Shown: positions 5,866 to 55,700, counted from the first letter of the stretch. The stretch is 64,000 nt of DNA from Synergistaceae bacterium (GCA_017446055.1 JAFSRQ010000079.1:13881-77880); one strand, 5' to 3'. Notes: a model not told the origin generated them from the sequence alone. Program-made: numbers and translations.

Positions 5866-6581
5866 GATTGCCAGCTTTCAGAGTCGGATAAATTTTCGAG
5901 TGCGTGTAATATTTTAGCGTATAAGTCGGGGATGTCCTTTCTGAGTCCGGCTATGTAGTCGCGGATTCTCTGGCGTTCTGTGTGTCCGGCAAAAGGGCAG
6001 GGACTGGATATTACCGGGAGACTGAGCCGCTTCACCTCGTCAACAATTGCTGACTCTGTAGCAAGAACAAGCGGCCTGATTACTGTAACACCTGTGCGTG
6101 TCATCAAAACTTTCGGCTGGAAACTTTTCGCCCTCCCTGCGTGAAGGAGGTTCATGAAGAAAGTTTCTGCTGCGTCATCAAGAGTGTGGCCGAGTGCGAG
6201 CTTGTTATAGCCGTTGTGAGATGCCCACGAGCTGATTATTCCCCGCCTCATGTTAGCGCAGAATGAACACGGTGATTTCTCCTGCCTCGCGTTGATGATG
6301 CCGATGATGTCCTGTGCTATGACTGTGTACGGAATGCCGAGTGAGCCGCAGTAATCCTCAAGGGGGGAAGTGTCGAGTCCTGAGAGTTTCACGGTGAGTG
6401 CTGAGACTGAGAACTTGACCGGGCTTCGGTGCTGGAGGTCATGAAGGGCGTGAAGTAGAATGAGGCTGTCCTTTCCGCCGGAGAGGCCGACTAGTATTCT
6501 GTCCCCCCCGGAAATCATTTGCCACCGGGATATTGCTCTGCCTATCTTGCGCCTGAGTGAGTGATTTATCTGTGCATTCAT
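5862..6581 (-). CDS. ttcA: tRNA 2-thiocytidine biosynthesis protein TtcA family (PP-loop ATPase)
   Basis: SGGKDS PP-loop, CSFCANMRRG, LALGHTLDD. ATGA overlap with the mutS start. Confidence 0.85.
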   Translation of the reverse strand: MNAQINHSLRRKIGRAISRWQMISGGDRILVGLSGGKDSLILLHALHDLQHRSPVKFSVSALTVKLSGLDTSPLEDYCGSLGIPYTVIAQDIIGIINARQEKSPCSFCANMRRGIISSWASHNGYNKLALGHTLDDAAETFFMNLLHAGRAKSFQPKVLMTRTGVTVIRPLVLATESAIVDEVKRLSLPVISSPCPFAGHTERQRIRDYIAGLRKDIPDLYAKILHALENLSDSESWQS

Positions 6582-6820
6582 TTCTTGCTGATGATAACGT
6601 GTAAGTCAACAGGGAAAATTCCGAGTCTCAACGTGATTGCTGAGACTGAGAACTTGACCGGGCTTCGGTGCTGGAGGTCATGAAGAGCGTGAAGTAGAAT
6701 GAGGCTGTCCTTTCCGCCGGAGAGGCCGACTAGTATTCTGTCCCCCCCGGAAATCATCTGCCACTGTGATATTGCCCTGCCTATCTTGCGTCTGAGTGAG
6801 TGGTTTATCTGTGTGAGCAT
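6578..6820 (-). pseudogene. tandem remnant copy of the ttcA 5' end (80-aa leftover ORF)
   Basis: The first 61 aa are 58/61 identical to the TtcA N-terminus, including SGGKDS, after which the sequence diverges. Its stop overlaps the real ttcA start (ATGA at 6578-6581). Confidence 0.8.
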
Positions 6821-27265: not shown

Positions 27266-27449
27266 CGCAGGTAGTTTTACGCCGCCCCGCTGTGAACAGA
27301 AAATGTATCCTGAGACATAATGCGCGACAATGCATCATTGAGCTTCCCCCCGTCAGCATTAGCCCCAAGAAGCACCCGGTATACCTCACCGTTGCCCGAC
27401 AGTTGCAGTATGAGCCGTGAAGCCCCTCTGCCTGACTGTAAGAGTGATG
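27266..27449. repeat. tandem remnant copy of the last ~180 nt of dnaE
   Basis: 27266-27447 aligns with 27449-27625 at ~93% identity by eye. Track ORFs 27177..27389 and 27386..27625 are artefacts of this copy. Confidence 0.85.
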
Positions 27450-30400
27450 TTACGCCGCCCCCGTGTGAACAGCAAATGTATCCTGAGACATAATCCGGGA
27501 CAATGCATCATTGAGCTTCCCCCCGTCAGCATTAGCCCCAAGAAGCACCCGGTACACCTCGCCATTGCCTGACAGTTGCAGTATGAGCCGTGAAGCCCCT
27601 CTGCCTGACTGTAAGGCCGACGCAAAACGCTTCATGCCTACACCCCGCAAAGCCTCAGCGTCAACAGCAAGAGTGATATACCGCCGCGATTTAGCGTCAA
27701 GCTCGGAGGACATAGTGATTTTGTCGGGGATGAACTGATTGCGGTCGTCAGTCCTGCCCTCAATGATACATGCCTGGCCGGGTGTTACCGTAGCCTTCAG
27801 AGCCTCCCACGTCTTGGGGAACAATATCACGTCAACGCTGGCTTCTGTGTCCTCAAGCTGTAACGTACACATGACATCACCCTTCTTAGTGGTCTTCTCC
27901 TTGAGGGACGCGATAATTCCCGCAATGCAGGGCTTGACACTATCACTGCTCCAAGTGGATATTCCCGCAATAGTACAGTTAGTGTAGGGCGATAATTGGG
28001 ACTGGTACGATTCGTACGGATGACCTGAGATATACAGCCCCGTAACACTCTTCTCGTAATCCAGCTTAGTGTGAGCGTCAAAATCCGGCACCTGCGGCAT
28101 GTCTGGTTCTGCTGTAACCGCGCCGTCATCACCGAATAATCCCAACTGGCCGGATGACTTCTGAGCGTTCACGTTCTGCACCGCCTCAAGGTATTTGGGA
28201 AGCACGTTCAACAGCATAGCCCTGTTATTGTTGATTTCGTCAAACGCGCCGGCCTTTATGAGGTTCTCGAAGACCGTCTTGTTCATCAGGCTCATATCAA
28301 CGCGCGTCATGAAGTCCCACAATGACCTGAAAGAGCCGCCCGCATTACGCCGCGATATAATCATGTTGACCGTGTTATGACCCATGCGTGCCACCGCACC
28401 CAGTCCGAAGCGTATAACATCCCCCACAGGAGTGAAATTCTCCATCGATGAATTGATGTCAGGAGGCAGTACCTTTATCCCGCTGTGCCTGACTTCCAGC
28501 ACATAATGACCGAGTACATCACGCTTGGCTTTCATCTGGCTGGTGAGATATGATGCCATGAACTCGGAGGGGTAATGAGCCTTGAGATATGCCGTGTCGT
28601 ATGAGATTAACGCATAGGCCGCGCTGTGGGACTTGTTGAAGCCGTAGCCCGCGAACTTCTCGATGTTGTCGAATATAGCTGATGCTGTCTCAGGCTTAAT
28701 GTCATGATGCTTCGCGCCCTCCATGAACTTGCCGCGCTGTTCCTGCATGACTTCAGCCTTCTTCTTGCCCATAGCCCGCCGTAACAGATCTGCCTCACCT
28801 AACGTATAGCCTGCCAGAACCGAAGCGCACTGCATGACCTGTTCCTGATAGAGTATAACGCCGTAAGTCTGGGACAATACAGGCTCCAGCAGCGGATGAG
28901 GGTAGATCGGCTTGGAGCGTCCGTGCTTGCAGTCAATATACTGGTCGACCATGCCACTATCCAGCGGTCCGGGACGGTACATAGCCAGAGCCGCAATCAA
29001 GTCCTCGAAGCAGTCAGCCCTGAGTTTGCGCAGCATTGCCCTTATGCCGTCCGATTCAAGCTGGAACACGCCCATAGTATCAGCGTCAGCAATAAGCCTG
29101 AAGGTGTCAGCATCATTAAGCTCATCGTTGACTTTGGCCATGTCCGGGACAGTCTTGCCGTTGTTCCTGATGTTGGCTAAAGCCTCCTCTATGATGGAGA
29201 GTGTAGACAGTCCGAGAAAGTCCATCTTAACCAGACCAAGCTCTTCAACCTCGCCCATAGTGAACTGAGTAACAACCTGCCCAGTATCACCTTCACCGAG
29301 ACGCTTGACCGGGACTATGTCTGTTACTGGTACAGGGGTAATGACGACACCGGCGGCGTGCTGTGAACAGTGTCGTGCTAATCCCTCGATGTTCTTTGCC
29401 TTGTCGATGATGTTGCGCTTTGTGGGGTCTGAGTCGTAAGCCTCTTTCAGCTCTGGGGTGTCCTCTATGGCTTGGGATAAGCTCTTGCACATGGCCGGGA
29501 TGAGCTTGGCGGTCTTGTCCATGATGGAATAGTCCATGCCTAAAGCGCGTCCTACATCTTTAACCGACTGCCTGCCCTTCATGCGTCCGAACGTGATAAT
29601 CTGCGCGACATGGTCAGAGCCGTAACGGTCAGAAATATACCGTAGCAACTCCTCACGTCCTTTGTCGGAAACGTCAGTATCAATATCAGGCATGGAGATA
29701 CGCTCCGGGTTAAGGAAACGCTCGAACAGCAAATCATAGCGGAGGGGGTCAAGCTCTGTGATATTGAGCGACCATGCAACGACACTTCCCGCCGCCGAGC
29801 CTCTGCCGGGACCGATAGGGATATTGCGTGATTTAGCGGCCTGAATTATTCCTGAGACTATGAGAAAGTACGAGCTGAAGCCCATTTGCGTAATCACGCC
29901 TAACTCACGCTCCAGTCTGTCGGAATACTCCTGCGGAATGTCAGTGCCTCTCACGGAAAATCTCGCCTTCAGTCCCTCATGAGCGAGCCTGCGCAAATCA
30001 TCATCAGGGTTGCCTCCTCCTGTTTCAGGCAGAAGGTACTTGCGTTCATCGGGAATGAGTTTGACGTTACAGCGTTCGGCGATTGCTGCGGTGTTGGTGA
30101 GGGCATCGGGTGCAATGTCGGCGAAGTGGGAATACATTTCCTCCGGGGACATGAGGTAGAACTCGTTGCGGTCGAAGCCGAATGCGTCATCTGTAGGGTC
30201 AGCGTGAGTGTTAATGCGTAACAATATCTTGTGCCAGTCGTAATCATCGCGGTTGAGGTAATGCGAGTCGCAGGTGGCGATTAGGGGAATACCAGTCTTG
30301 CGTGAGATGTCTATAACGGCCTCGTTGACCTTCTTCTGCTGGGGCAAGGAGTTGGGCATAATCTCAAGGTAGAAGTTATCATCACCCATGATAGTGCGGT

Positions 30401-30878
30401 ATTCTTCTGCGAGCTGAATTGCGCCTGTAATATTGTCAGCAAGTATCAACTGCGGAATTTCCCCGGCGAGGCAGGCGGAACTGGCGATGATGCCCTCGTG
30501 ATAATCCTGGAGAATTTTGCGGTCGATACGCGGCTTATAGTAGAAGCCTTGAGTGTTGGCTATGGAGATTAGCTTCATGAGGTTGTGCCAGCCAGTGATA
30601 TTTTCTGCAAGGAGGATTAGGTGATTAGCACGTTTGTTTGACTTGTCGCCAATGCCGGAAGATGATACATAGGTCTCACAGCCTAGAATAGGTTTGACCC
30701 CTTGAGCGAGGCAGTTCTTGTAGAACTCAACCGCTCCGTACAGAACGCCGTGGTCAGTAATAGCGGCGGCTTTAGTGTCCCACTGTGCTACTTTCTTGGC
30801 GTAATCTTTCGTGCGTATTGCACCGTCAAGCAGGCTGTATTCGGTGTGAACGTGAAGGTGAACAAAGTCGTAACTCAT
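27450..30878 (-). CDS. dnaE: DNA polymerase III alpha subunit
   Basis: PHP domain start FVHLHVHTEYSLLDG and full-length DnaE architecture (1142 aa). Confidence 0.97.
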   Translation of the reverse strand: MSYDFVHLHVHTEYSLLDGAIRTKDYAKKVAQWDTKAAAITDHGVLYGAVEFYKNCLAQGVKPILGCETYVSSSGIGDKSNKRANHLILLAENITGWHNLMKLISIANTQGFYYKPRIDRKILQDYHEGIIASSACLAGEIPQLILADNITGAIQLAEEYRTIMGDDNFYLEIMPNSLPQQKKVNEAVIDISRKTGIPLIATCDSHYLNRDDYDWHKILLRINTHADPTDDAFGFDRNEFYLMSPEEMYSHFADIAPDALTNTAAIAERCNVKLIPDERKYLLPETGGGNPDDDLRRLAHEGLKARFSVRGTDIPQEYSDRLERELGVITQMGFSSYFLIVSGIIQAAKSRNIPIGPGRGSAAGSVVAWSLNITELDPLRYDLLFERFLNPERISMPDIDTDVSDKGREELLRYISDRYGSDHVAQIITFGRMKGRQSVKDVGRALGMDYSIMDKTAKLIPAMCKSLSQAIEDTPELKEAYDSDPTKRNIIDKAKNIEGLARHCSQHAAGVVITPVPVTDIVPVKRLGEGDTGQVVTQFTMGEVEELGLVKMDFLGLSTLSIIEEALANIRNNGKTVPDMAKVNDELNDADTFRLIADADTMGVFQLESDGIRAMLRKLRADCFEDLIAALAMYRPGPLDSGMVDQYIDCKHGRSKPIYPHPLLEPVLSQTYGVILYQEQVMQCASVLAGYTLGEADLLRRAMGKKKAEVMQEQRGKFMEGAKHHDIKPETASAIFDNIEKFAGYGFNKSHSAAYALISYDTAYLKAHYPSEFMASYLTSQMKAKRDVLGHYVLEVRHSGIKVLPPDINSSMENFTPVGDVIRFGLGAVARMGHNTVNMIISRRNAGGSFRSLWDFMTRVDMSLMNKTVFENLIKAGAFDEINNNRAMLLNVLPKYLEAVQNVNAQKSSGQLGLFGDDGAVTAEPDMPQVPDFDAHTKLDYEKSVTGLYISGHPYESYQSQLSPYTNCTIAGISTWSSDSVKPCIAGIIASLKEKTTKKGDVMCTLQLEDTEASVDVILFPKTWEALKATVTPGQACIIEGRTDDRNQFIPDKITMSSELDAKSRRYITLAVDAEALRGVGMKRFASALQSGRGASRLILQLSGNGEVYRVLLGANADGGKLNDALSRIMSQDTFAVHTGAA

Positions 30879-34823: not shown

Positions 34824-36053
34824 TTAACGTTTGAGCCTCCTGTTGATTTCGTCAAATTCCGCCCTGAGATTGCCGCCCTCGAAAATCTTCAGCTCCGGCA
34901 TAGCCAGCTTCATCACCGCGTCAATAGTATTCAGCCCCGAATGTATCAGCCCGCGCAATTCCCCCGAACTTCTCACCGTCCTGTAAGTATTCTCCGCTAA
35001 GTCCCGGTTCAGTCTCAGAGACTTTATGCTGTCCATGAGGGATAATTTCTGAGCGTCAAGGAGCTGGCCGTACAGTTTCGCCGCCTGAATAGTTGCCGCG
35101 TTGGACTTTGCATTGAGGGCAAACGATTTCCTCTGTGATGACGTGTAAGCGCGGTTGTTGCTTCGGGATAATGCTTCCTTCCTGAGAGCTTCTGCCTCAG
35201 TGCGAATGTCTGACAGCTTGGGCTTGTAGTCGCCGTCCATCTTGCGCACTAACTCCTCCTGAGTGTGTATCAGTATGTCGTTGAGGACTAGGTACATTCC
35301 TGCGTAACGCTTGACGATTTCGGGATTGTTAGTGTCCTGCTGTGAGAGTTCCTCAAGTTTAGCTGTTACAGCTTTGACGTTCTCGAATATGACTGTGTTG
35401 TGAAGTATGTCCTCACCAGTAACGGAATTGATGAGAATATCGGCCTGTTCATCAGTGAGAGTGATGCCGAGTTTAGACAGCTCATCGGTAACTCTGGAAT
35501 TTACCGCTGTCAGTTCGTGTTCAATGCGTGAGATTTCGTGTTCAGCCTGAGAGATTTTAGCGTCAACTTTCGACTTGGTATCACGCCAGAAAAGATAAGT
35601 GCTTTCGGGGGCATTAATGCGGCTGTTCCTGAGGGTGTCAAGCTCCGAGCGCAAAGCCGTAAGCCTGGCTCTAAGTTTCACGGCCTCCGAACGGGCAGTG
35701 CCAGCGTTACCGTCCGACAGTATCACTAATGCCCGGTCTAAGAGGGCGTTAATCTTCGCGGAATTGCTGACCTTGTCCTCACCGAACCACGCCGAATTGG
35801 GCAGTGTCTCCTGCTTGTCGCGCAAGGTCAGGGCATCGTTGAGTGTGTCAGTGAGCTTGTCCCATTTCCCCGCGATATTTTCCGGCAATGTATCATCGGC
35901 GGCTTTCTGTGAGTCGTCAGCAAACCATCCTGACACGTATTGAGTTGTGTCGTTCCACATGCCTGACACGTAATCGCACACATCATCCCACATGCCCGCA
36001 CTAGCTGATGATGCCTGTAACAGTAATATGATGACGGCAATAGATTTCTTCAT
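34824..36053 (-). CDS. secreted coiled-coil protein, unknown function
   Basis: Signal peptide MKKSIAVIILLLQASSASA with an AGGAGGGA RBS. Long heptad-like helical sequence. No family recognised. Confidence 0.65.
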   Translation of the reverse strand: MKKSIAVIILLLQASSASAGMWDDVCDYVSGMWNDTTQYVSGWFADDSQKAADDTLPENIAGKWDKLTDTLNDALTLRDKQETLPNSAWFGEDKVSNSAKINALLDRALVILSDGNAGTARSEAVKLRARLTALRSELDTLRNSRINAPESTYLFWRDTKSKVDAKISQAEHEISRIEHELTAVNSRVTDELSKLGITLTDEQADILINSVTGEDILHNTVIFENVKAVTAKLEELSQQDTNNPEIVKRYAGMYLVLNDILIHTQEELVRKMDGDYKPKLSDIRTEAEALRKEALSRSNNRAYTSSQRKSFALNAKSNAATIQAAKLYGQLLDAQKLSLMDSIKSLRLNRDLAENTYRTVRSSGELRGLIHSGLNTIDAVMKLAMPELKIFEGGNLRAEFDEINRRLKR

Positions 36054-36084
36054 GGTAATCCCTCCTGATGATATTTTCGGTTAG

Positions 36085-36480
36085 ACTTCTACTCGTCAAC
36101 ACACACAAGGGTGAAACGTTCTGTGAGTCGTCAGCAAGCCCTCCTGACACGTAACGCCCGCACTAGTGATTAGACTTCCATTCGTCAACAGCACAAGGGT
36201 GAAACGTTCTGTGAGTCATCGGCAAGCCCTTCTGACACGTAACGCCCGCACTAGTGATTAGACTTCCATTCGTTAACACACAAGGGTGAAACGTTCTGTG
36301 AGTCATCGGCAAACCACCCTGACACGTAACGCCCGCACTAGTGATTAGACCGCCATTCGCCAACAGCACAAAGATGAAACGTTCTGTGAGTCGCCAGCAA
36401 GCCCTCCTGACACGTAACGCCCGCACTAGTGATTAGACCGTCATTCGCCAACACACACAAAGGTGAAACGTCTTCCGCAA
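36085..36480. repeat. ~88-nt imperfect tandem array (about 4.5 copies) upstream of the coiled-coil gene
   Basis: gtgaaacg anchor at 36111, 36199, 36286, 36373 and 36463. Each unit fuses upstream DNA with fragments of codons ~16-50 of the adjacent CDS. Confidence 0.85.
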
Positions 36481-36565
36481 CCCCTCCTTAAAGTGTTATG
36501 GTAATTAATCCCTGTGAAGTTTTTGTGTCATGCGCTATTATATCGGCATATCCTGAAATCAGAAG

Positions 36566-37684
36566 GTGAGTTTTTTGCGCGTAACAATTCTCACAAACGG
36601 ACCCGGCGAATTATGGGGCTGGGTACGCCCTGTGTGTTCCGAATTACGCAGGAGGGGGCATTCCATCTCACTGTGGCTATTGCCCTGCCCTTTCTCGTCC
36701 GGCCTGGAGCGTGAAGCCGCCTCCCTCTTAGGTGTCGACAAACTCGAAGGCCCTTCATCATTCTCCGTAACATGGCGCGAGATTGCCCGTGAGCATACTG
36801 ACACAATCATTCAGCTTGGCGGTGATGTCTCATTCGGCGCAAGAATGGCCGACTGTTCACACGTCCCCCTGACCGTATACAGCTACAGGCACAGCAGGGT
36901 CATACGGGGCGCGAAACTCCTAACAGCTTACCGCGAGCAGGCTACATTCACTCAGCAGCAGGTAACACCTATAGGCGACCTCGTGAAGGATGCCGTGAAG
37001 CTGGACATCACACCCTCAGCCGTAAATTCATGGGACTGGTACAGGGATGACGACAGCCCCCGCATATTGTTCCTCCCGGGAAGCCGCCCTAAGATACGTT
37101 CAGCCGTAATATCATGGCTGTGTGAACTCCGCGACAGCATCACCCGCCTCATACCCAACGCAAGAATACGCTCACTGTTCCCCCAGTTTATGCCCGAACA
37201 AGAGATGTCCTTGTGGCGCAAGGAGGGACTGAACCCGGTAAAGGCAGGAGCAGGCGCGGCCATGAGGGAGGCAGATTACGCCATAACCCAGCCCGGCACC
37301 AACAACTTCGAGATGATGCACTCAGGCTTGCCCGGTCTGGTGGTAGTCCCCGAAAAATTCCTCGCATATATCCCCGTCTCAGGAGTTGCCAGCTTCTTCA
37401 CCGGGCTTCCTCTTCTCGGAGGAATAATCCGGCGCAAGGCTCTCATGCATACGGTCAGCAAGTGGAACGGCTATATCTCCCTGCCCAACAGGACATTCCA
37501 GCGCGACATTCTCACGGAATTGTGGGGCAACATCACTCCAGTAACAATAGCGGAGAAAGTGAGAGCGGAAATTGCTGACAGGGATAAACTTTCAGCGTTA
37601 CGCAAGGAGCTTCTCGGGCTTTCTGGGACTGGGGGGGCTGCTTCAAGGCTTGTTGACATAGCAGCAGGCTCGGAGGAATTGTAG
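36566..37684 (+). CDS. lipid-A-disaccharide synthase-like glycosyltransferase (GT19/LpxB-like)
   Basis: LTNGPGE start, FLPGSRPKI, ADYAITQPGTNNFEMM..P.VVVP and YISLPNR..ILTEL match conserved LpxB blocks. Lies next to msbA/lpxK. Confidence 0.6.
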   Translation: MSFLRVTILTNGPGELWGWVRPVCSELRRRGHSISLWLLPCPFSSGLEREAASLLGVDKLEGPSSFSVTWREIAREHTDTIIQLGGDVSFGARMADCSHVPLTVYSYRHSRVIRGAKLLTAYREQATFTQQQVTPIGDLVKDAVKLDITPSAVNSWDWYRDDDSPRILFLPGSRPKIRSAVISWLCELRDSITRLIPNARIRSLFPQFMPEQEMSLWRKEGLNPVKAGAGAAMREADYAITQPGTNNFEMMHSGLPGLVVVPEKFLAYIPVSGVASFFTGLPLLGGIIRRKALMHTVSKWNGYISLPNRTFQRDILTELWGNITPVTIAEKVRAEIADRDKLSALRKELLGLSGTGGAASRLVDIAAGSEEL

Positions 37685-37688
37685 CTCA

Positions 37689-39392
37689 ATGTCGACGGCA
37701 CAGTTTCTCTACTCTTACGCGCGGCCTTACAGGGTGAAGATACTTCTTGCGGTGATATTCATGCTGGCTTCATCCGGGCTTAACACATTGCCTCCTCTGC
37801 TGTTCAAGTATGTGGTTGACGATGTACTAATCTCGCGCAACATATTCATCCTCAACGTGATATGTGTGTGTGTGATAGTGATATTCGGTCTCAAGGCTGT
37901 AACTATGTACCTTCAGCGTTACTGCATGAACGAGGCCGGGCAGGGCGTGGTTATGGACATCAGGAACGCACTCTATGACCACATGATGCGCATGAAGCTG
38001 GGGTATATATATTCATCGAGGACGGGCGACCTGATGAGCAGGATTACGGGTGATGCGGCGACATTGCAGAACATAGTAACGTCAACCTTCATCGATATGA
38101 TGTTCAACCTGATAACCTTTCTGGGTATGCTTGCGTTCATCATCTACATCAACTGGAAGCTGACCAGCCTTATAGTGATAGTGCTTCCGTTTGTGGGGCT
38201 TCTGCTGTCATTTGCCGGGAAAAAGCTCCGGGTAGCCGGGCATAACGTCCAGGAGCATTTAGCCGACATAACCGCAACGGCTCAGGAGGCATTCTCGGCG
38301 GTGAGGGTAGTGCGCTCATTCGCCAACGAGGACGCAGAGATGGAGCGTTTCCGTGAGGCAGGGCGGGGGAATTACGCGGCATTGCTTCAGGCGGTAAGCG
38401 TTCAGGGGATACTTGCGGGAGTGATTGAGGTCTTCCTGATTGTGGCACTGGCTGTAGTGTTCCGTGTTGGGGGAATGAGCGTGATTGACGGTGAGCTTAC
38501 ACCGGGGGAATTGATTTCCTTCACGGGATATATTGCGTTCATGGTACAGCCTATACGCAGCGTGATGAACCAGATGAGCTACATACAGACGGGCATAGCC
38601 AGCGCGGAACGTATACAGTCAATACTTGCAGTCCCGGTTGAGGAGGATACATCCGGCCATGAACATATCCCTGTAACAGGAGCTATAACTTTCCGCAATG
38701 TGTCATTCAGCTATGACGCTCAGGAGATATTGCACGGGGTAAGCCTTGAGGTTAATGCAGGCGGGAAAATCGCTATCGTAGGGCCGACGGGTTCAGGCAA
38801 GTCGACAATAGCCGACCTCATACCGCGTTTCTACGAGCCATCTTCGGGTGAAATCCTCATAGACGGGAGGAACATTCATGATTTCGGCCTGAAGGATTTG
38901 CGTCGGCAGATTGGGATTGTCCCGCAGGAATGTGTATTGATGCGCGGGAGTATTGCGTTCAACATTGCTTACGGCATGAGTGATATTGACATGGTGAAGG
39001 TGAGGCAGGCGGCGGAGATTGCTGACATAAGCGCGTTCATTGAGAGTTTGCCGGAAGGTTATGATACTGTTGTGGGCGAACGTGGCGTAACACTCTCAGG
39101 GGGTCAGCGTCAGAGGATAGCAATAGCCCGGGCAGTGATACGGGATCCTCGTATACTGATACTTGACGAGGCTACAAGCTCACTTGACACGGCATCGGAA
39201 CAGGCGGTGCAGAAAGCACTGAACCAGGCCATGAAGGGACGCACATCAATCATCATAGCCCACAGGTTAAGCACGATAAGGAACGCTGATATGATATACG
39301 TACTGAGTGAGGGGAAATTCATTGAGGCAGGGACACATGAACAGCTTTTGCTGACGGGGGGATTGTATGCTGACTTGTACGGCAATATGTGA
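37689..39392 (+). CDS. msbA: ABC transporter permease/ATPase, MsbA-like lipid A exporter
   Basis: Six-TM domain plus NBD with GPTGSGKST, LSGGQRQRIAIARA and ILILDEATS. LPS gene context. Confidence 0.8.
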   Translation: MSTAQFLYSYARPYRVKILLAVIFMLASSGLNTLPPLLFKYVVDDVLISRNIFILNVICVCVIVIFGLKAVTMYLQRYCMNEAGQGVVMDIRNALYDHMMRMKLGYIYSSRTGDLMSRITGDAATLQNIVTSTFIDMMFNLITFLGMLAFIIYINWKLTSLIVIVLPFVGLLLSFAGKKLRVAGHNVQEHLADITATAQEAFSAVRVVRSFANEDAEMERFREAGRGNYAALLQAVSVQGILAGVIEVFLIVALAVVFRVGGMSVIDGELTPGELISFTGYIAFMVQPIRSVMNQMSYIQTGIASAERIQSILAVPVEEDTSGHEHIPVTGAITFRNVSFSYDAQEILHGVSLEVNAGGKIAIVGPTGSGKSTIADLIPRFYEPSSGEILIDGRNIHDFGLKDLRRQIGIVPQECVLMRGSIAFNIAYGMSDIDMVKVRQAAEIADISAFIESLPEGYDTVVGERGVTLSGGQRQRIAIARAVIRDPRILILDEATSSLDTASEQAVQKALNQAMKGRTSIIIAHRLSTIRNADMIYVLSEGKFIEAGTHEQLLLTGGLYADLYGNM

Positions 39393-40008
39393 ATGCTACA
39401 TCAATTACGCAACACCGATTACCCGTATCATCATGGCCGCTACAGTCTCACACGCACTAATCTCAACAGGAGGACTACATGCTGACTTACACCGCAATAA
39501 CACCGATTACCCGTATCATCATGGCCGCAACACTCACACGCACTAATCTCAACAGGAGGAATATATGCTGACTTGTACGGCAATATGTGAACGCTGCAAC
39601 TACGTAACACCGATTACCCGCTTCATCATGGCCGCTACAGTCTCACACACACTAATCTCAATGGGAGGACTATATGCTGACTTACACCGCAATCTGTGAA
39701 CGCTGCAACTACGCAACACCGATTACCCGTGTCATCATGGCCGCTACACTCACACACACTAATCTCAATGGGAGGACTATATGCTGACTTACACCGCAAT
39801 CTGTGAACGCTGCAACTACGTAACACCGATTACCCGCTTCATCATGGCCGCTACACTCACACGGACAGAACAACGCGCTAATCTCAACAGGAGGACTATA
39901 TGCTGACTTATACGGCAATCTGTGAACACTACAACTACGCAACACCGATTACCCGTGTCATCATGGCCGCGACACTCTCACACGCGCTAATCTCAACAGG
40001 AGGACTAT
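39367..40008. repeat. six tandem imperfect copies (86-119 nt) of the lpxK translation-initiation region
   Basis: ATGCTGACTT at 39367, 39479, 39565, 39674, 39781 and 39900, before the real start at 40009. All but the first, which lies inside the msbA 3' end, are preceded by AGGAGGA-type or GGGAGGA RBS. Confidence 0.9.
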
Positions 40009-42207
40009 ATGCTGACTTACACCGCAGTCTATGAACGCTACATCAACTACGCAAAGGGCAGACGTAACAGCCTATTGCTTGATGTTATCCTCACACCATG
40101 CTCGTGGATAACCCGCGTCATCATGGCCGCAACTGACTTCCTCCACTCTCACGGCCTACTCAATGCCTCACTGCCTCCTGTCCCGGTAATCAGCGTAGGC
40201 AACCTCACTTACGGCGGCACCAACAAGACACCATTCACCATAATGCTCGCGGAATATGCACTCTCACGTGGGCTGAAAGCCGGAATAGTTACACGCGGCT
40301 ACATGGGCAGCAACAAGTCCCAGGACGCAATCATCATCACTAACGGCAATGTTCCCCGTGATATTGCAGGCGATGAGGCGGTCATGATTTCGCGCAAACT
40401 CCCTCATGTCCCGGTCGCTGTCTCTAAGCACAGGATTGACGGCGTTAATGCCCTTCGCGATTTGGGCGTTGAGCTGGTCATAGCTGATGATGCCTTCCAG
40501 CACAGAAACATGAAGCGTGATTGTGATATTGTTCTGGTTGACGCACTGTGTCCTTTCGGGAACGGCAAACTCACCCCTGCCGGAATTATGCGGGAGAATG
40601 TATCTGCCCTGCGCCGCGCTCACATGGTCGTCATCACTAAATCGTCAATGGTATCACCTGCCGCTCTCAGGAATATATATCACACACTCAGCAGGTACAC
40701 AGAGCCGGAAAATATATTCATGTCGGATATTTCTGCTGATGGCTGGAACTTCACAGAGCCTTCACCGGGGGCAAGAGTTTATGCGTTCTCTGCGACTGGA
40801 AGCCCTGAGACATTCACGCGCTCACTTGCCGACAGGGGATGTGTCATCACAGGCAGCACTGCATTCCGAGACCATCACAGATATACTCACGATGACATTC
40901 ACCAGCTCAATGAGAAGTCGACACAAACACAAGCACAGTACATCGTCTGCACGGAGAAAGACCTCGCCAACATGGACGGCATTTCACCCGGAGAGTTCGT
41001 GCTTCCTCTGGCAGTCCCCAAAATCAGAGTAGCTATCCATGAGCCTGAACGTTTTTACTCACACTTAGCTGGCGTTCTCAGGCCGGAAATAGTGATTGCC
41101 TCAAACGGTTACGGTGAGGACGCTATAGCCTCTGTGTTAGCCCGCAAGATGATTGCCGCTTATCCCCTGTCGAAAGTCTCAGCATTCCCCTTAGTCGGAA
41201 GCGGAGAAGCATTCATCAAGGCCGGGGTAAATATACTGTCAGCAAAATCCGTAACACCTTCAGCGGGCATCTTCAAGTACTCATTGCGTGAACTGTGGAA
41301 TGATTTGCGGGCCGGGCTTCTCGGTCAGGTTCGTGAACAGCTCAGGGACTGGCGCAGTGTCTCACGTAAGATACTGCCTCCTGTGTGTGTGGGTGATGTC
41401 TACCTTCTGGCTAATACTTTGTGGGGTTCAGGACTGCGGCCTGTTTTTGTTGCTACGGCTAAGACGGTGTATATCTCCGGGCATTGGAGGACTGAGAGAA
41501 TGATGATACGGAAATTCACTCTCAGGACTTGGACGAGGGACGAGCCTACAGCGTTGCAGATTGGTGATAAGGCTGTGTACTCAGGAAGTCCCATAATGGA
41601 TTTGCTTGGCGACAATGTATCAGCCTCAGGAGATGTGATACTGCTCCTGCCCGGAAGCCGTAAGTCAGCCGGGAGAAATGCGGCAATATTGCTGGGAGCT
41701 GCAGAAATCCTCTGTGAGCATGGGCATAAACTCTTCAGGATGGTGCTTGCTCCTACGGTAGATACTGCGTCATTCTTCAGGGAGTGTGAGTCTGTCGACT
41801 GGAAACATGAAGGTGATGCTCTCACTAAGTCGGGGGTAACGATAAGCCTAACCGCTGAGGAAATTTCGCGGGCAGCCATCGGGGGGAAATTACTCTTGGG
41901 CATGGGAGGGACGGCTAACCAGTTATGCGCGGGAATGGGTATTCCTGTAATCGCTCCTGATGACAAGGGCAAGAGGGTGCAGAAAAAGTTATTGGGCAAT
42001 GCTGAGATACTCACACACGCTTCATCTGCGGCTATGGCTGAATGTGCCTTGAGGGTTCTTGCTGACGAGGGGCTGTACGGCTTCATGAGTGATACGGGGC
42101 GCAGGAGGATGGGCAGACCTGGCGCGGGTGATGATGTGGTGCGTTATACTCGTGATGTGCTGGGCTGGGGGATTAGGGAGAAGGTTTACAGGATGCTGAC
42201 ACCGTAG
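40009..42207 (+). CDS. lpxK: tetraacyldisaccharide 4'-kinase LpxK fused to a lipid-A-disaccharide-synthase-related domain
   Basis: The N-terminal half carries VGNLTYGGTNKTP and VTRGY LpxK motifs. The C-terminal half (from ~aa 365) carries SNGYGEDAIA, LLPGSRKS and GGTANQLCAGMGIPVI, which are LpxB-related. Confidence 0.8.
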   Translation: MLTYTAVYERYINYAKGRRNSLLLDVILTPCSWITRVIMAATDFLHSHGLLNASLPPVPVISVGNLTYGGTNKTPFTIMLAEYALSRGLKAGIVTRGYMGSNKSQDAIIITNGNVPRDIAGDEAVMISRKLPHVPVAVSKHRIDGVNALRDLGVELVIADDAFQHRNMKRDCDIVLVDALCPFGNGKLTPAGIMRENVSALRRAHMVVITKSSMVSPAALRNIYHTLSRYTEPENIFMSDISADGWNFTEPSPGARVYAFSATGSPETFTRSLADRGCVITGSTAFRDHHRYTHDDIHQLNEKSTQTQAQYIVCTEKDLANMDGISPGEFVLPLAVPKIRVAIHEPERFYSHLAGVLRPEIVIASNGYGEDAIASVLARKMIAAYPLSKVSAFPLVGSGEAFIKAGVNILSAKSVTPSAGIFKYSLRELWNDLRAGLLGQVREQLRDWRSVSRKILPPVCVGDVYLLANTLWGSGLRPVFVATAKTVYISGHWRTERMMIRKFTLRTWTRDEPTALQIGDKAVYSGSPIMDLLGDNVSASGDVILLLPGSRKSAGRNAAILLGAAEILCEHGHKLFRMVLAPTVDTASFFRECESVDWKHEGDALTKSGVTISLTAEEISRAAIGGKLLLGMGGTANQLCAGMGIPVIAPDDKGKRVQKKLLGNAEILTHASSAAMAECALRVLADEGLYGFMSDTGRRRMGRPGAGDDVVRYTRDVLGWGIREKVYRMLTP

Positions 42208-42395
42208 GCCGCAAGCATTCTCCCCAGTGTACACAGAGGAAGACCCACAACGTTACAGTAATCGCCCTTTATCCCCTCTATCATCAATGAACCTATACCC
42301 TGCACTGCATACCCCCCGGCTTTGTCGTATGGCTCGCAGGTTTGGGTGTAGGCTTCTATCTCCCATTCGGACAACTCGCGGTAACAACTTCGAGC
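42186..42395 (-). pseudogene. tandem remnant copy of the maf 3' end
   Basis: The 62-aa ORF is 56/62 identical to Maf residues 128-189. Its end overlaps the lpxK 3' end convergently by 22 nt. Confidence 0.85.
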
Positions 42396-42401
42396 GTGTA
42401 T

Positions 42402-42971
42402 CTATATGAGACTGACCCCATAACCCGCAAGCATTCTCCCCAGTGTACACAAAGGAAGCCCCACAACGTTATAGTAATCGCCCTTTATGCCCTCTATCAT
42501 CAATGACCCTATACCCTGCACTGCATACCCCCCGGCTTTGTCGTATGGCTCGCAGGTTTGGGTGTAGGCTTCTATCTCGAGTTCGGACAACTCACGGAAC
42601 TTCACCAGCGTATGAACGTCAGCAATACTCACACGTTCACCGCAACTCACACACAGCCCCGTAACCACTTCATGCACTCTTCCTGAGAGCAGCCGCAGCA
42701 TCCTCACAGCGTCATCATGTCCTGAAGGCTTGCCGAGAATTTCTCCGCCGTCAGCAACTACTATAGTATCAGCGGCTATGACTGCATCATCAGGATATAC
42801 ACGTGAGCCTGCTTCAGCCTTGAGACGTGATAACCTCCTGCATAATTCTGCGGGACTTTCGCCGGGTAAATGCTCCTCGTTCACGTCAGGGTGATACACG
42901 GTGAAGTCAAGCCCTATGCTTTCGAGTAATGACTTCCTGCGCGGACTTCCTGAAGCTAGAATTATCTTCAT
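42402..42971 (-). CDS. maf: Maf-family nucleoside triphosphate pyrophosphatase
   Basis: ILASGSPRR start and KAGGYAVQG motif. Confidence 0.9.
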   Translation of the reverse strand: MKIILASGSPRRKSLLESIGLDFTVYHPDVNEEHLPGESPAELCRRLSRLKAEAGSRVYPDDAVIAADTIVVADGGEILGKPSGHDDAVRMLRLLSGRVHEVVTGLCVSCGERVSIADVHTLVKFRELSELEIEAYTQTCEPYDKAGGYAVQGIGSLMIEGIKGDYYNVVGLPLCTLGRMLAGYGVSLI

Positions 42972-49732: not shown

Positions 49733-52700
49733 ATGCGCAAAATATTCGTGTGTGTGATGGCGGCCATGATGGTTTTCACGGCAGCTGTCACTCATGCCGC
49801 GGAAGTCCCTGCAAACCCCTTCAGCGGTTTCGGGCTTTACACCAGCTACGTAACAAGCGGAAGTGTGAAGCTCAACGCTGTAGGACTGCCGGATTATTCC
49901 GAGGTTAAGTCGTTCAGGGGCGACGGTGTAACACTGGGAGGAACTCTCAAGCCCGGTGCTGACACGTCATCATTGCCAGTGGGAACAGTAACGATACTCA
50001 GCGGGGACAACGCCGGGAAACGTTACAGGTTCACGCCCGGAGGAAGCTCGCGAGGCTCATCGTTCGTGGGCTACAATGCGGATTACTCGTACTATGACTC
50101 CTACGGCAACTATCACAGCGGTGAACTTCCAGCAGGCAGCAGGGTTATGTGGAATCTCTACACCTCGCCTGATGTTGTGGCGGGGGCGGCTGACATCAAG
50201 AGTGCTTCAGACATTGACCCGGTCAGTATAGGCAGGAATGATATTGTCCCGTTCGTCAAGTCAACTCAGACAAGCAGCTATACTTACCGCTATGATGTCT
50301 ACTTCGTGAAGTCGGGCGATTGGGGGGTGCCTGTAGCTGTCGATTATGACTCGGTGGCCGTCAACGGATATGTTGTGCCAGATTTCAGCAACCCCTATCC
50401 GGTCAGGCATACTATCGGCAGGAGTTATTACTACGACACTACTATTGCTGTAACATGCACCAAAGGCAGAGCCAGTTACACGTGGAACTTTGAGCTGACA
50501 TCAAGCCTTATCGAATGGGGGAAATTATCGCTTGACCTTCAGCCCTTCACACTTAAGGCTGGTGAGTCCCAGACCGTAACCGTAAAGCTGCCTTCCCGCT
50601 ATGACCTGAGAGAGGCTTACGCAAGCGCAGACATTACAGATCGGTATCTTGAAGTTGGCGATGCGTCAGTCCTTGAGGCCGGGAATATCACCTTCACACA
50701 GGGTGCAGGCTGGCACGGTGATAATGAGGAGAAATCTACGCTTGAGTTCGTGCTTACGGGGCTTGAGCCGGGACGTTCTGCTCTTGGGATATATATTCCT
50801 CGCATAGGGACATATTACCGTGAGATTCATGTTACGGATGAGAACGGAAGCATGAACATCGCCGGGGGGACAACGAGCCTTTACCCCATCATCACACATA
50901 CAACCCGCGCACGCTACGTTGAAGGCCGTCCATATTACCCGTCAGCAGAAGATTACGAGGCAAGGCTTACGGGGTTTGGCGGGTTCACGGGTGCTACTCT
51001 TGCGGTCAGCACATCGACTAGTTCAAGCGGGGATGTCAAAGAGTACTCATACTACACCGGGCCTCATGGCTATTTGGGGACTGTCAGAGATTCGCGCCGC
51101 ACTATCTCAGAGCTTACTGTTGACGGCGAGACGGGCAAATCCTACAACGTATCATCCTACTCAGGTGTACGCTACACTACCCTCAGCACAGACAGCTATT
51201 ACAACTCAGAATATCCCGGCGACATCTCATTTTCCCTTGATGCATCTGAAGACATAGAGATATGGCTGGAATTTCCCGCCAGCTACGATATGAACCTGTC
51301 ATCAGCAAAACTCTCATCACTGGTCTCACTCGACAAAATCAGGTCAACCTCCGTACAGCTTGAAGACTTTGCGCCATACTTCCAGCTTCATCATGCCTCC
51401 AATGACCTAGATGTGATAACTTCTGTTGACTGGTCATTCGTCAAGCCTGCCACTATGGAGAAAGTTACCCCTTCCGGCCTCACAGACATAACCATAGGCG
51501 GCCATACCGTAACAGGCACAAGCGGTACAGTTGCGGCTGACGGATATTTTTACCCCCGCATCAGCTACACCTACAACGGAACGGTCTACGAGTGGGAGTT
51601 CTCGCGAATGAACTCGACCAACTACACCACCTCCGCAGTTCTTGTAGGGACGGGTAAAACTGTGAGTGTTGACCTGCCTATAACGATAGACAGCGGGCAG
51701 ATATACATTTTCGACAGCGATATACTCAGTGCAGACCCGACAGCATTCACGTCCGCCGACTTCCAGTCCCGCACGGATGAAGCAGTAACAACTGTAATCC
51801 TTTCACAGCCAGTAATAAACACTAGTGCGCAAAAGTCAGCAGTAATTCATACGTTCAGCCAGGCACAGCAGACGGTAACAGGAGCATTAACCAGTGAGGC
51901 ATTGCAGGCGGTTGACGGCTACACTCCTGCACTTGCGGCGGTGTGGTCAGCAAAGGCATCACAGGTTGACGAGGCAATAACATCTGCATTAACCGGGATA
52001 GCATTCAATGCCGCGGCAAGGTCTCAATTCTTCCCTAGACTTGATACGGCAGGTGTCATATTCCCGCGCGACAACTCAACGCTGAAGTCCGGCACATCAT
52101 CGGTATCATCAGGAGCGTCAACAGCGGAGAAATTAGCGGCGGCGACCTCCCAGCTCAACGGAATGGGACAGGCATTATCGGCAACGGAAGCTGTAGTACC
52201 TGCTGAATATGGACTGTATGTTTTCCCGATGACATTCGGCAGTGAGCTTTACGGTGTCAGGATTGCGGGTGCAATAGGCAACAGGTCAGACAAGAGCAAT
52301 AATTTTGCTGACGGGACAAGTATAGCCTTCGTGAACAGTTCGGGGGATATTATTGACACAATCCCTGATGCATCACTCTCACAGGACATCATGCCCGGAT
52401 TTGTCGGTGTACTCACTGTGCTTGAGGCTGGGAAAACATATGAGCCTACGGTATACGCCGCCAACGACAGCCTTGCTGCAGCAGGAATTACCTTAACGGA
52501 GGCTGTTACGGCGGAAGTGAACCTGATAGAAACTCTTACGTCTGACAGCACGGTATCATTCCGTGTGAAGGGCATCAAGGACGGCCTGAGCAGCCTCAGC
52601 CTAATTCACCCGTACAGTGAGAGTTCAAGCCCCTACTACAGGTACAGCGCGTACAGGTGGAATGTTACTGTCGGTGAAGTCTCAGAGGACATCACCCCGG

Positions 52701-55700
52701 CGACTGCTACAGCGACATTCTCCATGAATGCGAACTATGCTCCGATGATTGAGGGCAGACCGTATTACGGAGGAAGCAGTGTATCATTCCCGGACTATGT
52801 ATCTATACGTCTTGATACTGGCCTTGAGCTTTCAGAAAGTGAATACGAGGCTAAACGCGATGACCTTACGGGGATAATGTATGTCTCCGGCGATAAAGAT
52901 ACGCAGGTAACACTGTATCCGTATGCCAATTACTCACGTTATGACAACGGCACATACTACAGGACGGTGTACTATGATGTCAGCTCCACCTACTTCACAT
53001 CAGGGAAAACGGTAAGGTGGGAATTTTCTTCCGGCCTCATAAAGAGTGGCAGCGCAACAATTCCCACGTTCGACAGCAGGAAAGCCGCTGACACTATACC
53101 CAGTCTCACACTTAACCGGGACGGCATCAACGCAGAGACCCTCGAATGGTCGTTCACAGACTCAAAGGATAACCCTGTAACAGCACCGTCAAATGTTAGA
53201 GTGTGGGTCAACAACTACCAGCGCGAGATTTCCAGCGACAAAGGCACGGGCAATATCAGCGTCAATCTCCCGGAAGCCTTCATCAACAACATTGATATCA
53301 GCTACGAGCAGGACGGCCTCACCTACACGTGGAACTTCAGACCCGTTGACAGCCCTTCATATAGCTGGAACGGAGACATTTTCACGTGGAACGCCGCGAG
53401 CAATGACCTTCCTCTGGCCATGAAGAAGGGTGAGACTCGTGAAGTCCTCCTCAGTGTCAGTGATGATTACGGCAACATCACTCCGTTAATCGGCAACCCC
53501 GGCATAGTCTCAATGTCAGTAGTCTCAAGCACAGACAGCACGGTTACAGTGAGGCTAACGGCAAAAGAGGCAGGAATGACTACTCTCGGCATGAGATACC
53601 AGCGCAAGGAGACATACACAGTATACCCGACAATCCCGGACAACTCTGGAAGTTACCCGGTCGCGGCAGTATACGGCGGTGATGTTGCTACAGTCTCAAG
53701 CGTCAGCCTCGATGACAGTGATGTGATTGACATCGTGCTTAACCCGGACGGTTCAGCAACAGCAGGAGGCGCGGAAGTTCCGACCTACAATTACGTGTGG
53801 CACGCAGACCCACAGCACCCGGCGGAATACTGGACTGACGGAATGACCGGGACGGAAGAGCTAGACTCAGACGCATACGAGGCGGCAATCACCAGCACCA
53901 ACAACGGACTGTACATAGCCCGCGATATACGCTACACGCCCAACACGCTGGACTTCACCACGTCCCAGACAGCACAGAAGGACGAAGATACAGAGTATGT
54001 TGTGTACTACGACTCATCGTCCCCGGCAGTAGCGGCGGCAATAGCGGCACTTGGTGAGACATACGGCACGGCCTACAGCACGGACAGGTACATATTCGCT
54101 ACCCTGCCCATGAGCAATGGAGGGATGCCCGGAGGCGACTTCCCCGGCGGCAATCCCCAGAGCGGAGATATACCTGACTTCCCCGGCGGAATGCCCAGCA
54201 GCGGAGACATACCCGACTTCCCCGGCGGAATGCCCGGCAGCGGAGACACACCTCCAGATTTCCCCGGCGGCAACATGCCCAGCGGCGATGTACCCGGCAC
54301 ACCCGGAGCTGGTGATACCCGGCTTCCTGTGATGACTACGGCGGCATCTGACAGTGAGAGTATTGCGGCCATGTCGACAATGACGCATTCGGCTGAAGAT
54401 GCCTACAACAACCCTGTGCTCCACATCACAGAGCCCGGCACTTACAGGATTTCGGGTACGTGGCATGGTCAGATATGGGTTGAGACTGGAGCGAAGGCAA
54501 AGCACAAAGTCAACATCATCCTTAACGGCGTTGATGTGTCATGTGATGTAGCTCCTGCTATCGTCTTCTACAAGGTCTACAAGTGGGCGGAAGATAACGG
54601 TTACGATGACCAGTCAACACTAACTGCCAATAACCTGTGGCGGAACATTGGCGGCGAAATGGTCAGTGCGGACGGAAGCTATAACGTTGGCGCGGTCGTT
54701 GAGATTGCTGACGGCACGACTAACACGTTCACGGGGTCTAACGTCTACAGGCTTCTTGAGCTTTGCCCGAAACTTGACGATGACGACAACCCCAAGTACA
54801 CAGGCTCAGGAATTGGTACTGACATCAGCGAGCAGGAGAAGATGTACAAGCTCGATGGTGCGTTCCACTCACGGAGGACTATGGTAATCGGCGGCAATGG
54901 CACGCTCAATATCACGTCAACGACATGCGAGGGCCTCGACAGTGAGATGCATATGCTTGTTGACGGCGGGAACATCTCCGTAACAGCCCCCGATGACGGA
55001 ATCAACGTGAATGAGGACTATGTATCAGTCTTCCAGATGGACAGCGGAACACTCACAGTCTCATCAACAAATGCTGACGGCATAGACTCTAACGGCTGGA
55101 TTGCCTTCAACGGAGGAACGCTCAACATTTCTGCGGGCAATCAGTCTCAGAACTCAGCTGGCGAGGCAGGGCTTGACGCGGAGAATGAGGTCTACATTTA
55201 CGACTCAAGCGCATACAACTGGACATCAGCAGGCGGCAGCTTCCCGTCAACACCAGACGTACCCACGCCTACAAGCCCGGACATTCCCACACCAACGCCA
55301 GAAAGCCCGGACGTACCATCGCCAACACCAACAAGCCCGGACGTACCATCGCCAACACCAACAAGCCCGGACATTCCCACGCCCATTAGCCCGGACGTTC
55401 CTGCAACGCCTGAAACCCGCGTAACATATTACGGGGACTATATAGCATGGCCGCGTGAAATCTGGGTGTCTGAGCTGGATTCGTCAACAGGAAAGTACAG
55501 AGTGCCTCACCTCACGGATGACATTGATGCGCTGATGGACACGCTGAAGCCCGGCGGCTCTGACTGGACGGAATACAGCACTGCTTCAGGCGACAAGTCA
55601 GCAACAGCAAGCGATGAGCCTGAATATGACCAGTCAGCAAAAGATGTAGGCTATCAGGGTCTCTCCGTATATCCTCGTTTCGCCATGCCTCAAGACCCGT

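Follow-up and report, generated by a model that had tools for sequence, protein, structure and literature searches.

In Mycobacterium tuberculosis, the senX3-regX3 spacer carries a mycobacterial interspersed repetitive unit (MIRU) variable-number tandem repeat (VNTR), whose units bear an open reading frame (ORF) and whose copy number is described as strain-variable (Supply et al., 1997, via PMC12548453 and PMC4213456). Long-period repeats of Ehrlichia ruminantium and Wolbachia actively expand and contract (PMC10710844; PMC3287509). Furthermore, overlapping gene pairs can be translationally coupled, and the short ORFs of upstream-ORF or 'bicistronic design' leaders deliver ribosomes downstream (reviewed in PMC12548453). 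Here we describe a tandem array of six units between msbA and lpxK in a stretch of 64,000 nucleotides (nt) from a rumen Synergistaceae bacterium (GCA_017446055.1, JAFSRQ010000079.1:13881-77880; hereafter the window). We assign a probability of about 0.72 to the reading that the array is a species-specific VNTR that arose as the overlapping msbA/lpxK junction was repeatedly duplicated in tandem, and that is tolerated by the cell, rather than a dedicated control device.

The closest analogue of the array is the mycobacterial senX3-regX3 spacer MIRU-VNTR. In both cases tandem units of similar size lie within an operon, between co-oriented genes, the short ORF of a unit ends in an overlap with the neighbouring start and so may be coupled to it, and the copy number is variable. 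However, MIRUs are dispersed, apparently mobile and insert at start codons, whereas the unit described here is a local copy of the flanking gene ends and occupies one locus, with no further copies in the window, in 92 collected loci (designated by L numbers), or in plasmids or phages. The overlaps also differ (7 or 26 nt here, 4 nt in MIRUs), and promoter activity is reported for the senX3-regX3 repeats (PMC4213456), while none is predicted for this array. Like the repeats of Ehrlichia ruminantium and Wolbachia (see also Frutos et al., 2006), the array belongs among non-coding units of about 100-300 nt present in strain-variable number. Those hosts are intracellular Alphaproteobacteria with reduced genomes, whereas this one is a free-living rumen Synergistaceae, and each copy here is a full initiation module with overlapping stop, Shine-Dalgarno sequence (SD) and start. 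Repeats of the Ehrlichia type are reportedly associated with duplicated and truncated gene ends. The likeness to coupled gene pairs lies in the ancestral 26-nt overlap of msbA and lpxK, with the SD in the msbA Gly-Gly codons; the pair overlaps by 26 nt in relatives but is separated by 616 nt here, where duplication yielded a chain of six ORFs and coupling is putative. The last of these ORFs, by its sequence geometry, resembles a bicistronic design in being short and positioned to deliver ribosomes to lpxK. We found no literature on junction duplication combined with translational coupling. As it stands, the array belongs to a known repeat class, the VNTR, and reveals no new regulatory principle.

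A first-pass annotation, made from the sequence, had proposed that tandem decoy start sites precede lpxK, and the repeats are indeed real and sit where it had placed them. The decamer ATGCTGACTT occurs seven times in register, at 39367, 39479, 39565, 39674, 39781, 39900 and 40009, with spacings of 112, 86, 109, 107, 119 and 109 nt. Tandem Repeats Finder (TRF) reports head-to-tail copies with a score of 757 (period 109 nt, 4.9 copies, 86% matches) together with a sub-array of period 86. In the 64 kb of the window the unit cores are found 5-6 times, whereas none is expected from 100 shuffles; all lie within the array, and no inverted repeats were found there. The six mini-ORFs opened by the units fill the 616-nt gap between the msbA stop at 39392 and the lpxK start at 40009, a sequence rich in C (0.31) and poor in G (0.175). 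All six units are on the plus strand. In unit 1 (39367..39478, 112 nt), the genuine end of msbA, with its stop at 39390-39392, precedes a fragment of lpxK (lpxK'). Unit 2 (39479..39564, 86 nt; SD AGGAGGA at 39468-39474) has an extra 24-column internal gap, and unit 3 (39565..39673, 109 nt) follows an SD AGGAGGA at 39554-39560. Unit 4 (39674..39780, 107 nt; SD GGGAGGA at 39663-39669) is polymorphic, the msbA-derived tail of unit 5 (39781..39899, 119 nt; SD GGGAGGA at 39770-39776) is about 10-12 nt longer, and unit 6 (39900..40008, 109 nt; SD AGGAGGA at 39889-39895) leads into lpxK.

What was duplicated can be read from the units themselves. Translated in the frame of lpxK, a unit gives MLTYTAICERCNYATPITRVIMAAT... 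and matches LpxK residues 1-15 and 34-42, its head (MLTYTAICERCNYA..ITRVIMAAT) being homologous to the LpxK N-terminus. All six units are without the 18 codons KGRRNSLLLDVILTPCSW, as had been noted. In the msbA frame, the 3' part of a unit joined to the first 26 nt of the next encodes ..H(T)LIS(T/M)GGLYADLHRNL*, the C-terminus of MsbA, for which relatives have (E/Q)LIS.GGLYAELYGNL*. The units are thus copies of the lpxK start, as first proposed, but the msbA end was copied as well; read from these homologies, the unit is a copy of the entire msbA-end/lpxK-start junction and not of the lpxK start alone. The mini-peptides that the units could encode are, by the same alignments, plainly fragments of LpxK and MsbA. 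Units are 87-93.5% identical to each other. They are also mosaic: of 55 site pairs, 18 show all four gametes, which exchange within an array would be expected to produce. An ATC codon (..YINYA) is kept in unit 1 and in the real lpxK head and is absent from units 3-6, so the edges of the array appear to be its least derived parts.

Each unit carries a complete set of start signals and a short ORF. AGGAGGA or GGGAGGA lies 4 nt 5' of the ATGs at 39479, 39565, 39674, 39781, 39900 and 40009, which bears out the first-pass claim that all units but the first retain such an SD; the first ATG (39367), within the final 26 nt of msbA, is preceded by GGGGGGA (39356-39362). The decoy starts share the SD, the spacing and the first 10 nt of lpxK. 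The six mini-ORFs span 39367-39546 (59 amino acids, aa), 39479-39571 (30 aa), 39565-39699 (44 aa, with the msbA-like C-terminal tail GGLYADLHRNL*), 39674-39787 (37 aa), 39781-39906 (41 aa) and 39900-40034 (44 aa), so that the range of 37-59 codons given earlier becomes 30-59 once all six are translated. The last one does enter lpxK out of frame, as had been stated, although the overlap is 26 nt rather than about 20. In five of the six, the stop follows the next ATG at a distance of 7 nt (ATGCTGA) or 26 nt (..TGTGA or ..TATGA). Mini-ORF 1 is different and ends 19 nt short of the third ATG; the msbA stop itself lies 26 nt past the first ATG of the array. Stops in both other frames follow closely after each ATG. 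Division by 3 leaves a remainder for every one of the six periods, so that no decoy reads through. The last mini-ORF takes the place of msbA at the lpxK start, with the 26-nt geometry of the ancestral overlap.

The organism is an uncultured rumen Synergistaceae, a name under which NCBI lists an identical protein (P0001). Its relatives, metagenome-assembled genomes from goat, deer and sheep gut, show the state before duplication. The three nearest species (LpxK identity 73-75%) have one junction each: the nearest, L091 (75%), has a single junction with a 26-nt overlap, and L092 (74%) likewise has a single junction. The same single 26-nt junction is present in L008, L010, L012-L015, L030, L032 and L069, so that the ancestral overlap postulated earlier is what most of the closest relatives actually have, whereas more distant relatives have different small msbA/lpxK overlaps. 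In the closest relatives the SD is formed by the MsbA Gly-Gly codons, as GG.GG.CTTTATGCTGAACTTTACGGAAATCTATAA. TRF found no repeat at the msbA/lpxK junction in 69 Synergistaceae genome loci (577 kilobases, kb) and no array at the junction in the 80 loci (414 kb) recovered by an LpxK-based metagenome scan, and a scan of the metagenome collection with the unit core returned nothing. Over roughly 100 related loci, no other species showed the array. The homology of the unit to both flanking gene ends and the single junction in relatives point to a local origin. Since all sampled relatives have a single junction, the array is, on this comparison, younger than the split of this species from its nearest sampled relatives.

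Within the species the number of units varies, as had been suspected. Six units are present in the window, in L088 (0 mismatches over 4704 nt) and in L090, and five in L001/L087, L002, L003, L004, L006 and L089, which lack precisely unit 4 and are otherwise identical. The two forms come from the same species, with identical LpxK and MsbA and constant flanks (mismatches 0/2400 and 0/4704); all the assemblies compared are short-read. On inspection of the unit sequences, an exact repeat of about 68 nt appears to flank unit 4 on both sides (39647-39714 and 39754-39821), and if so its gain or loss would be a simple homologous event. Contigs L090 and L005, both from sample ERZ27256806, break at the unit-4 site, and a mixture of the two alleles in that sample would explain the break. 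The variation is not of the phase-variation type, in which a frame or a promoter spacing is switched: both ORFs are unchanged on loss of unit 4, and the plus strand of the array has no predicted promoter.

Similar events have occurred elsewhere in the genome and in the clade. A second VNTR (88 nt x 4.4, 89% matches; 36081..36471) lies upstream of the lpxB-like/msbA/lpxK operon, where the intergenic region is divergent, and has 3.3, 4.4 or 5.3 copies across assemblies of this species; no sigma-70 consensus or terminator was found in it, and an Rfam scan of 35900-36700 gave no relevant match. At 27277-27615, a 173-nt duplication (x 2, 94% matches) comprises the 3' end and stop of a 1142-aa ORF on the minus strand (27450..30878). 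At 42209-42597, maf (42402..42971, minus strand) has likewise had its 3' end duplicated, as about 173 nt plus a 43-nt filler; the filler now contains the maf stop, and the dead maf copy adjoins the lpxK stop, while in L092 maf and lpxK overlap convergently. A difference downstream of lpxK between the window and L001/L002 was considered as a polymorphism and rejected, as it is a 100-N scaffold gap inside the maf repeat. In another Synergistaceae species (RGIG3476, L031), a 257-nt tandem duplication at 1776-2253 crosses the junction between lpxB' and msbA. Through it msbA has gained a decoy start (GTG at 1976), and the LpxB' C-terminus is repeated in an ORF of 89 aa; the event is of the same type as the array, one junction upstream. 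L050 has 293 nt x 2 at the 3' end of its lpxK fusion (6102-6695), and L009 has an 18-nt duplication (CGAAGCTTGCTTACGGAA x 2) at about 3960-4000, exactly at the msbA/lpxK overlap. Tandem duplication at gene boundaries is therefore a generic process in this genome and clade and is not limited to the array. Where a duplication includes a stop, a start or both, one intact copy of each gene remains, and such a duplication is therefore expected to survive. Arrays were also seen at contig ends in L031 (6744-7233, 113 nt x 4.3) and L016 (6065-6496, 132 nt x 3.4).

How could the array have formed? From its anatomy, an initial duplication would have run from about 55 nt before the msbA stop through approximately codon 42 of lpxK, after which the lpxK' copy on the upstream side, being dispensable, would have lost 54 nt. 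Slipped-strand mispairing or unequal recombination would next have amplified this unit of about 109 nt into 5-6 extra copies, which later diverged and swapped segments. We infer that this origin was accompanied by near-neutrality. The cell would tolerate the array since no unit is without stop, SD and start signals: msbA is finished in unit 1, intact lpxK begins after the last unit, and in-register contraction of any kind restores both genes. Duplications of this class pass purifying selection, and this genome often makes them. Ribosomes probably translate the 616-nt spacer in relay, through six mini-ORFs that are out of frame, because each unit has the strong, accessible SD and ATG of lpxK with stops nearby. 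Such a relay would hold ribosomes on the spacer and limit Rho-type polarity, while the last mini-ORF would re-create the ancestral termination 26 nt past the lpxK start. In combination, the relay and the recreated termination geometry would keep lpxK expressed passively, without regulating it.

Several observations weigh against a merely tolerated array. All six decoy ATGs and five SDs are intact although the units diverge by 7-13%, and none of the six periods is divisible by 3, for which the chance is (2/3)^6 = 0.09. Third positions account for 6 of the 12 variable sites in the lpxK' frame, which is not significant (p = 0.18), and one lipid A operon of a host-associated bacterium holds two VNTRs. 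Such hints are weak and non-significant, yet selection in favour of translated units or of tunable expression would fit them. Moreover, neutrality, translation of the mini-ORFs, the anti-polarity effect and the cover of a spacer resembling a Rho-utilization (rut) site are all deduced from sequence. Finally, the five-unit form could have arisen by collapse of unit 4 in short-read assembly; simple collapse is unlikely, because contigs were built with k = 141, which exceeds 68 nt.

A less likely reading is that the array is a selected translational device, as the first-pass annotation proposed: a ladder of SD and ATG sites for ribosome loading or re-initiation, or a sponge, in which copy number would tune the LpxK:MsbA ratio. 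The decoys share their signals with lpxK, and opening 25 nt around the start is predicted to cost 4.3-5.1 kcal/mol at four of them and 6.7-6.8 kcal/mol at the other two, against 4.36 kcal/mol for lpxK and a mean of 6.8 in flanking sequence, so that decoys should initiate about as well as lpxK. The overlap of successive mini-ORF stops and starts, the unstructured, CA-rich leader, the alternation between five and six units and the second VNTR in the upstream region of the operon would all suit such a device. The chaining of ORFs, however, follows automatically from duplicating an overlap junction, comparable duplications affect gene 3' ends lacking any start site, the second VNTR nearby shows no start-site logic either, and none of the related species sampled has the array. 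The initiation modules are conserved no better than the remaining unit: 3 of 21 columns are variable from the SD to ATG+10 and 17 of 101 elsewhere (Fisher p = 1), which gives no sign of selection on them. Bacterial ribosomes load independently on internal SDs, and upstream decoys would not be expected to titrate them; neither would a change in copy number act through the reading frames, which it leaves as they are, or through a promoter, which the scan did not find. A selected ladder, sponge or switch thus has no comparative support in these sequences, and we regard it as unlikely. A bolder variant, which we consider a long shot, is that the array, possibly with the 88-nt VNTR, forms a selected tunable module: the mini-ORF relay would cover a Rho-prone, C-rich spacer and uncouple LpxK from MsbA synthesis, and recombination that adds or removes units would set the lipid A kinase output of different strains. 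If true, this module would be a long-period contingency locus that works on translation instead of the reading frame.

The remaining explanations fare worse than duplication of the junction. The 616-nt spacer is non-annotated and has open frames of 30-59 codons, and its units could in principle encode a structured regulatory RNA, an array of promoters or functional small proteins. An Rfam scan of 38800-40600 returned nothing at E <= 1 except one snoRNA match within msbA, which is a chance hit. Structured RNA was rejected: the sense strand of the array shows markedly less structure than shuffled sequence (z = +6.25), from which the antisense strand does not differ. A sigma-70 and terminator scan of the array found no plus-strand promoter and no terminator. 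As for proteins, the codon-position bias is the non-significant one given above, the peptides are without the hydrophobic part of the LpxK N-terminal segment, and the 37-aa product of unit 4 has no record as a called gene. An encoded function of this kind is accordingly very improbable. Scarcely more room is left for an assembly artefact, in which bubbles between strain variants were concatenated or a repeat was mis-resolved. Short-read metagenome assembly is difficult here, with contigs L090, L005 and L006 ending or beginning within the array and scaffolds carrying N gaps in the neighbouring 216-nt repeat. Nevertheless, at least 8 independent metagenome assemblies, from different samples and with two contig-naming styles, contain these mutually diverged units in one and the same order, and substitutions and indels distinguish units whose order is fixed; the artefact is very unlikely indeed. 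Least probable of all is a mobile intergenic repeat that was inserted and amplified and carries its ORF by chance, whether MIRU-like or similar to repetitive extragenic palindromic (REP) sequences or miniature inverted-repeat transposable elements (MITEs). The layout is MIRU-like, with an internal ORF coupled to the downstream gene (PMC12548453), but homology ties the unit to the adjacent ends of msbA and lpxK, no second copy of it lies in the window, the 92 loci, plasmids or phages, and inverted repeats are missing. BLAST of the spacer against plasmids and phages gave no match, and a mobile-element origin was rejected.

A tolerated junction duplication would be of use in its own right. Overlapping genes that have been separated by duplication, with their signals kept, provide a natural series of 0 to 6 units for termination-reinitiation and polarity. 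The loci together suggest that, in this rumen Synergistaceae lineage, gene boundaries hold several long-period repeats that are actively varying and could be strain markers. They are also a practical trap, as decoy starts mislead gene callers and the repeats break short-read assemblies, leaving split contigs, N gaps and possibly collapsed units. The significance of the array would grow only if unit number tuned LpxK output.

The flanking genes are well defined. msbA (37689..39392, plus strand, 567 aa) has Pfam ABC_membrane and ABC_tran domains and matches NCBIfam MsbA_lipidA (TIGR02203, E = 7e-158); the C-terminus of this MsbA-type ABC exporter, GGLYADLYGNM*, corresponds to GGLYAELYGNL* in relatives. 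The gene upstream of it (36566-37684) has a sub-threshold match to LpxB (19.2 bits against a cutoff of 22.6). lpxK (40009..42207, plus strand, 732 aa) is a fusion, with matches to Pfam LpxK (PF02606, 1.3e-77), TIGR00682 and TIGR03492; LpxK and the lipid-A-disaccharide-synthase-related domain of TIGR03492 are fused throughout this Synergistaceae clade. Its true start is placed at 40009, behind the SD AGGAGGA at 39998-40004, because the N-terminus ML(T/N)(Y/F)T..Y.RYI.(H/Y)AKG, MLTYTAVYERYINYAKG... in this protein, is kept in many homologues. The codon aligned with this ATG is ACG in L008 and L032 and ATT in L013 and L069, and the N-terminal residues downstream of it stay conserved in all four, which suggests, from the alignment, a non-canonical or alternative lpxK start in those related species. 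Further downstream in the window, a 2410-aa ORF (49733-56965) contains in-frame, short-period coding repeats with periods of 30, 39, 42 and 63 nt (54137-54287, 55271-55383 and 56209-56386), whose consensus looks Pro/Asp/Lys-rich, and it may encode a repetitive surface protein.

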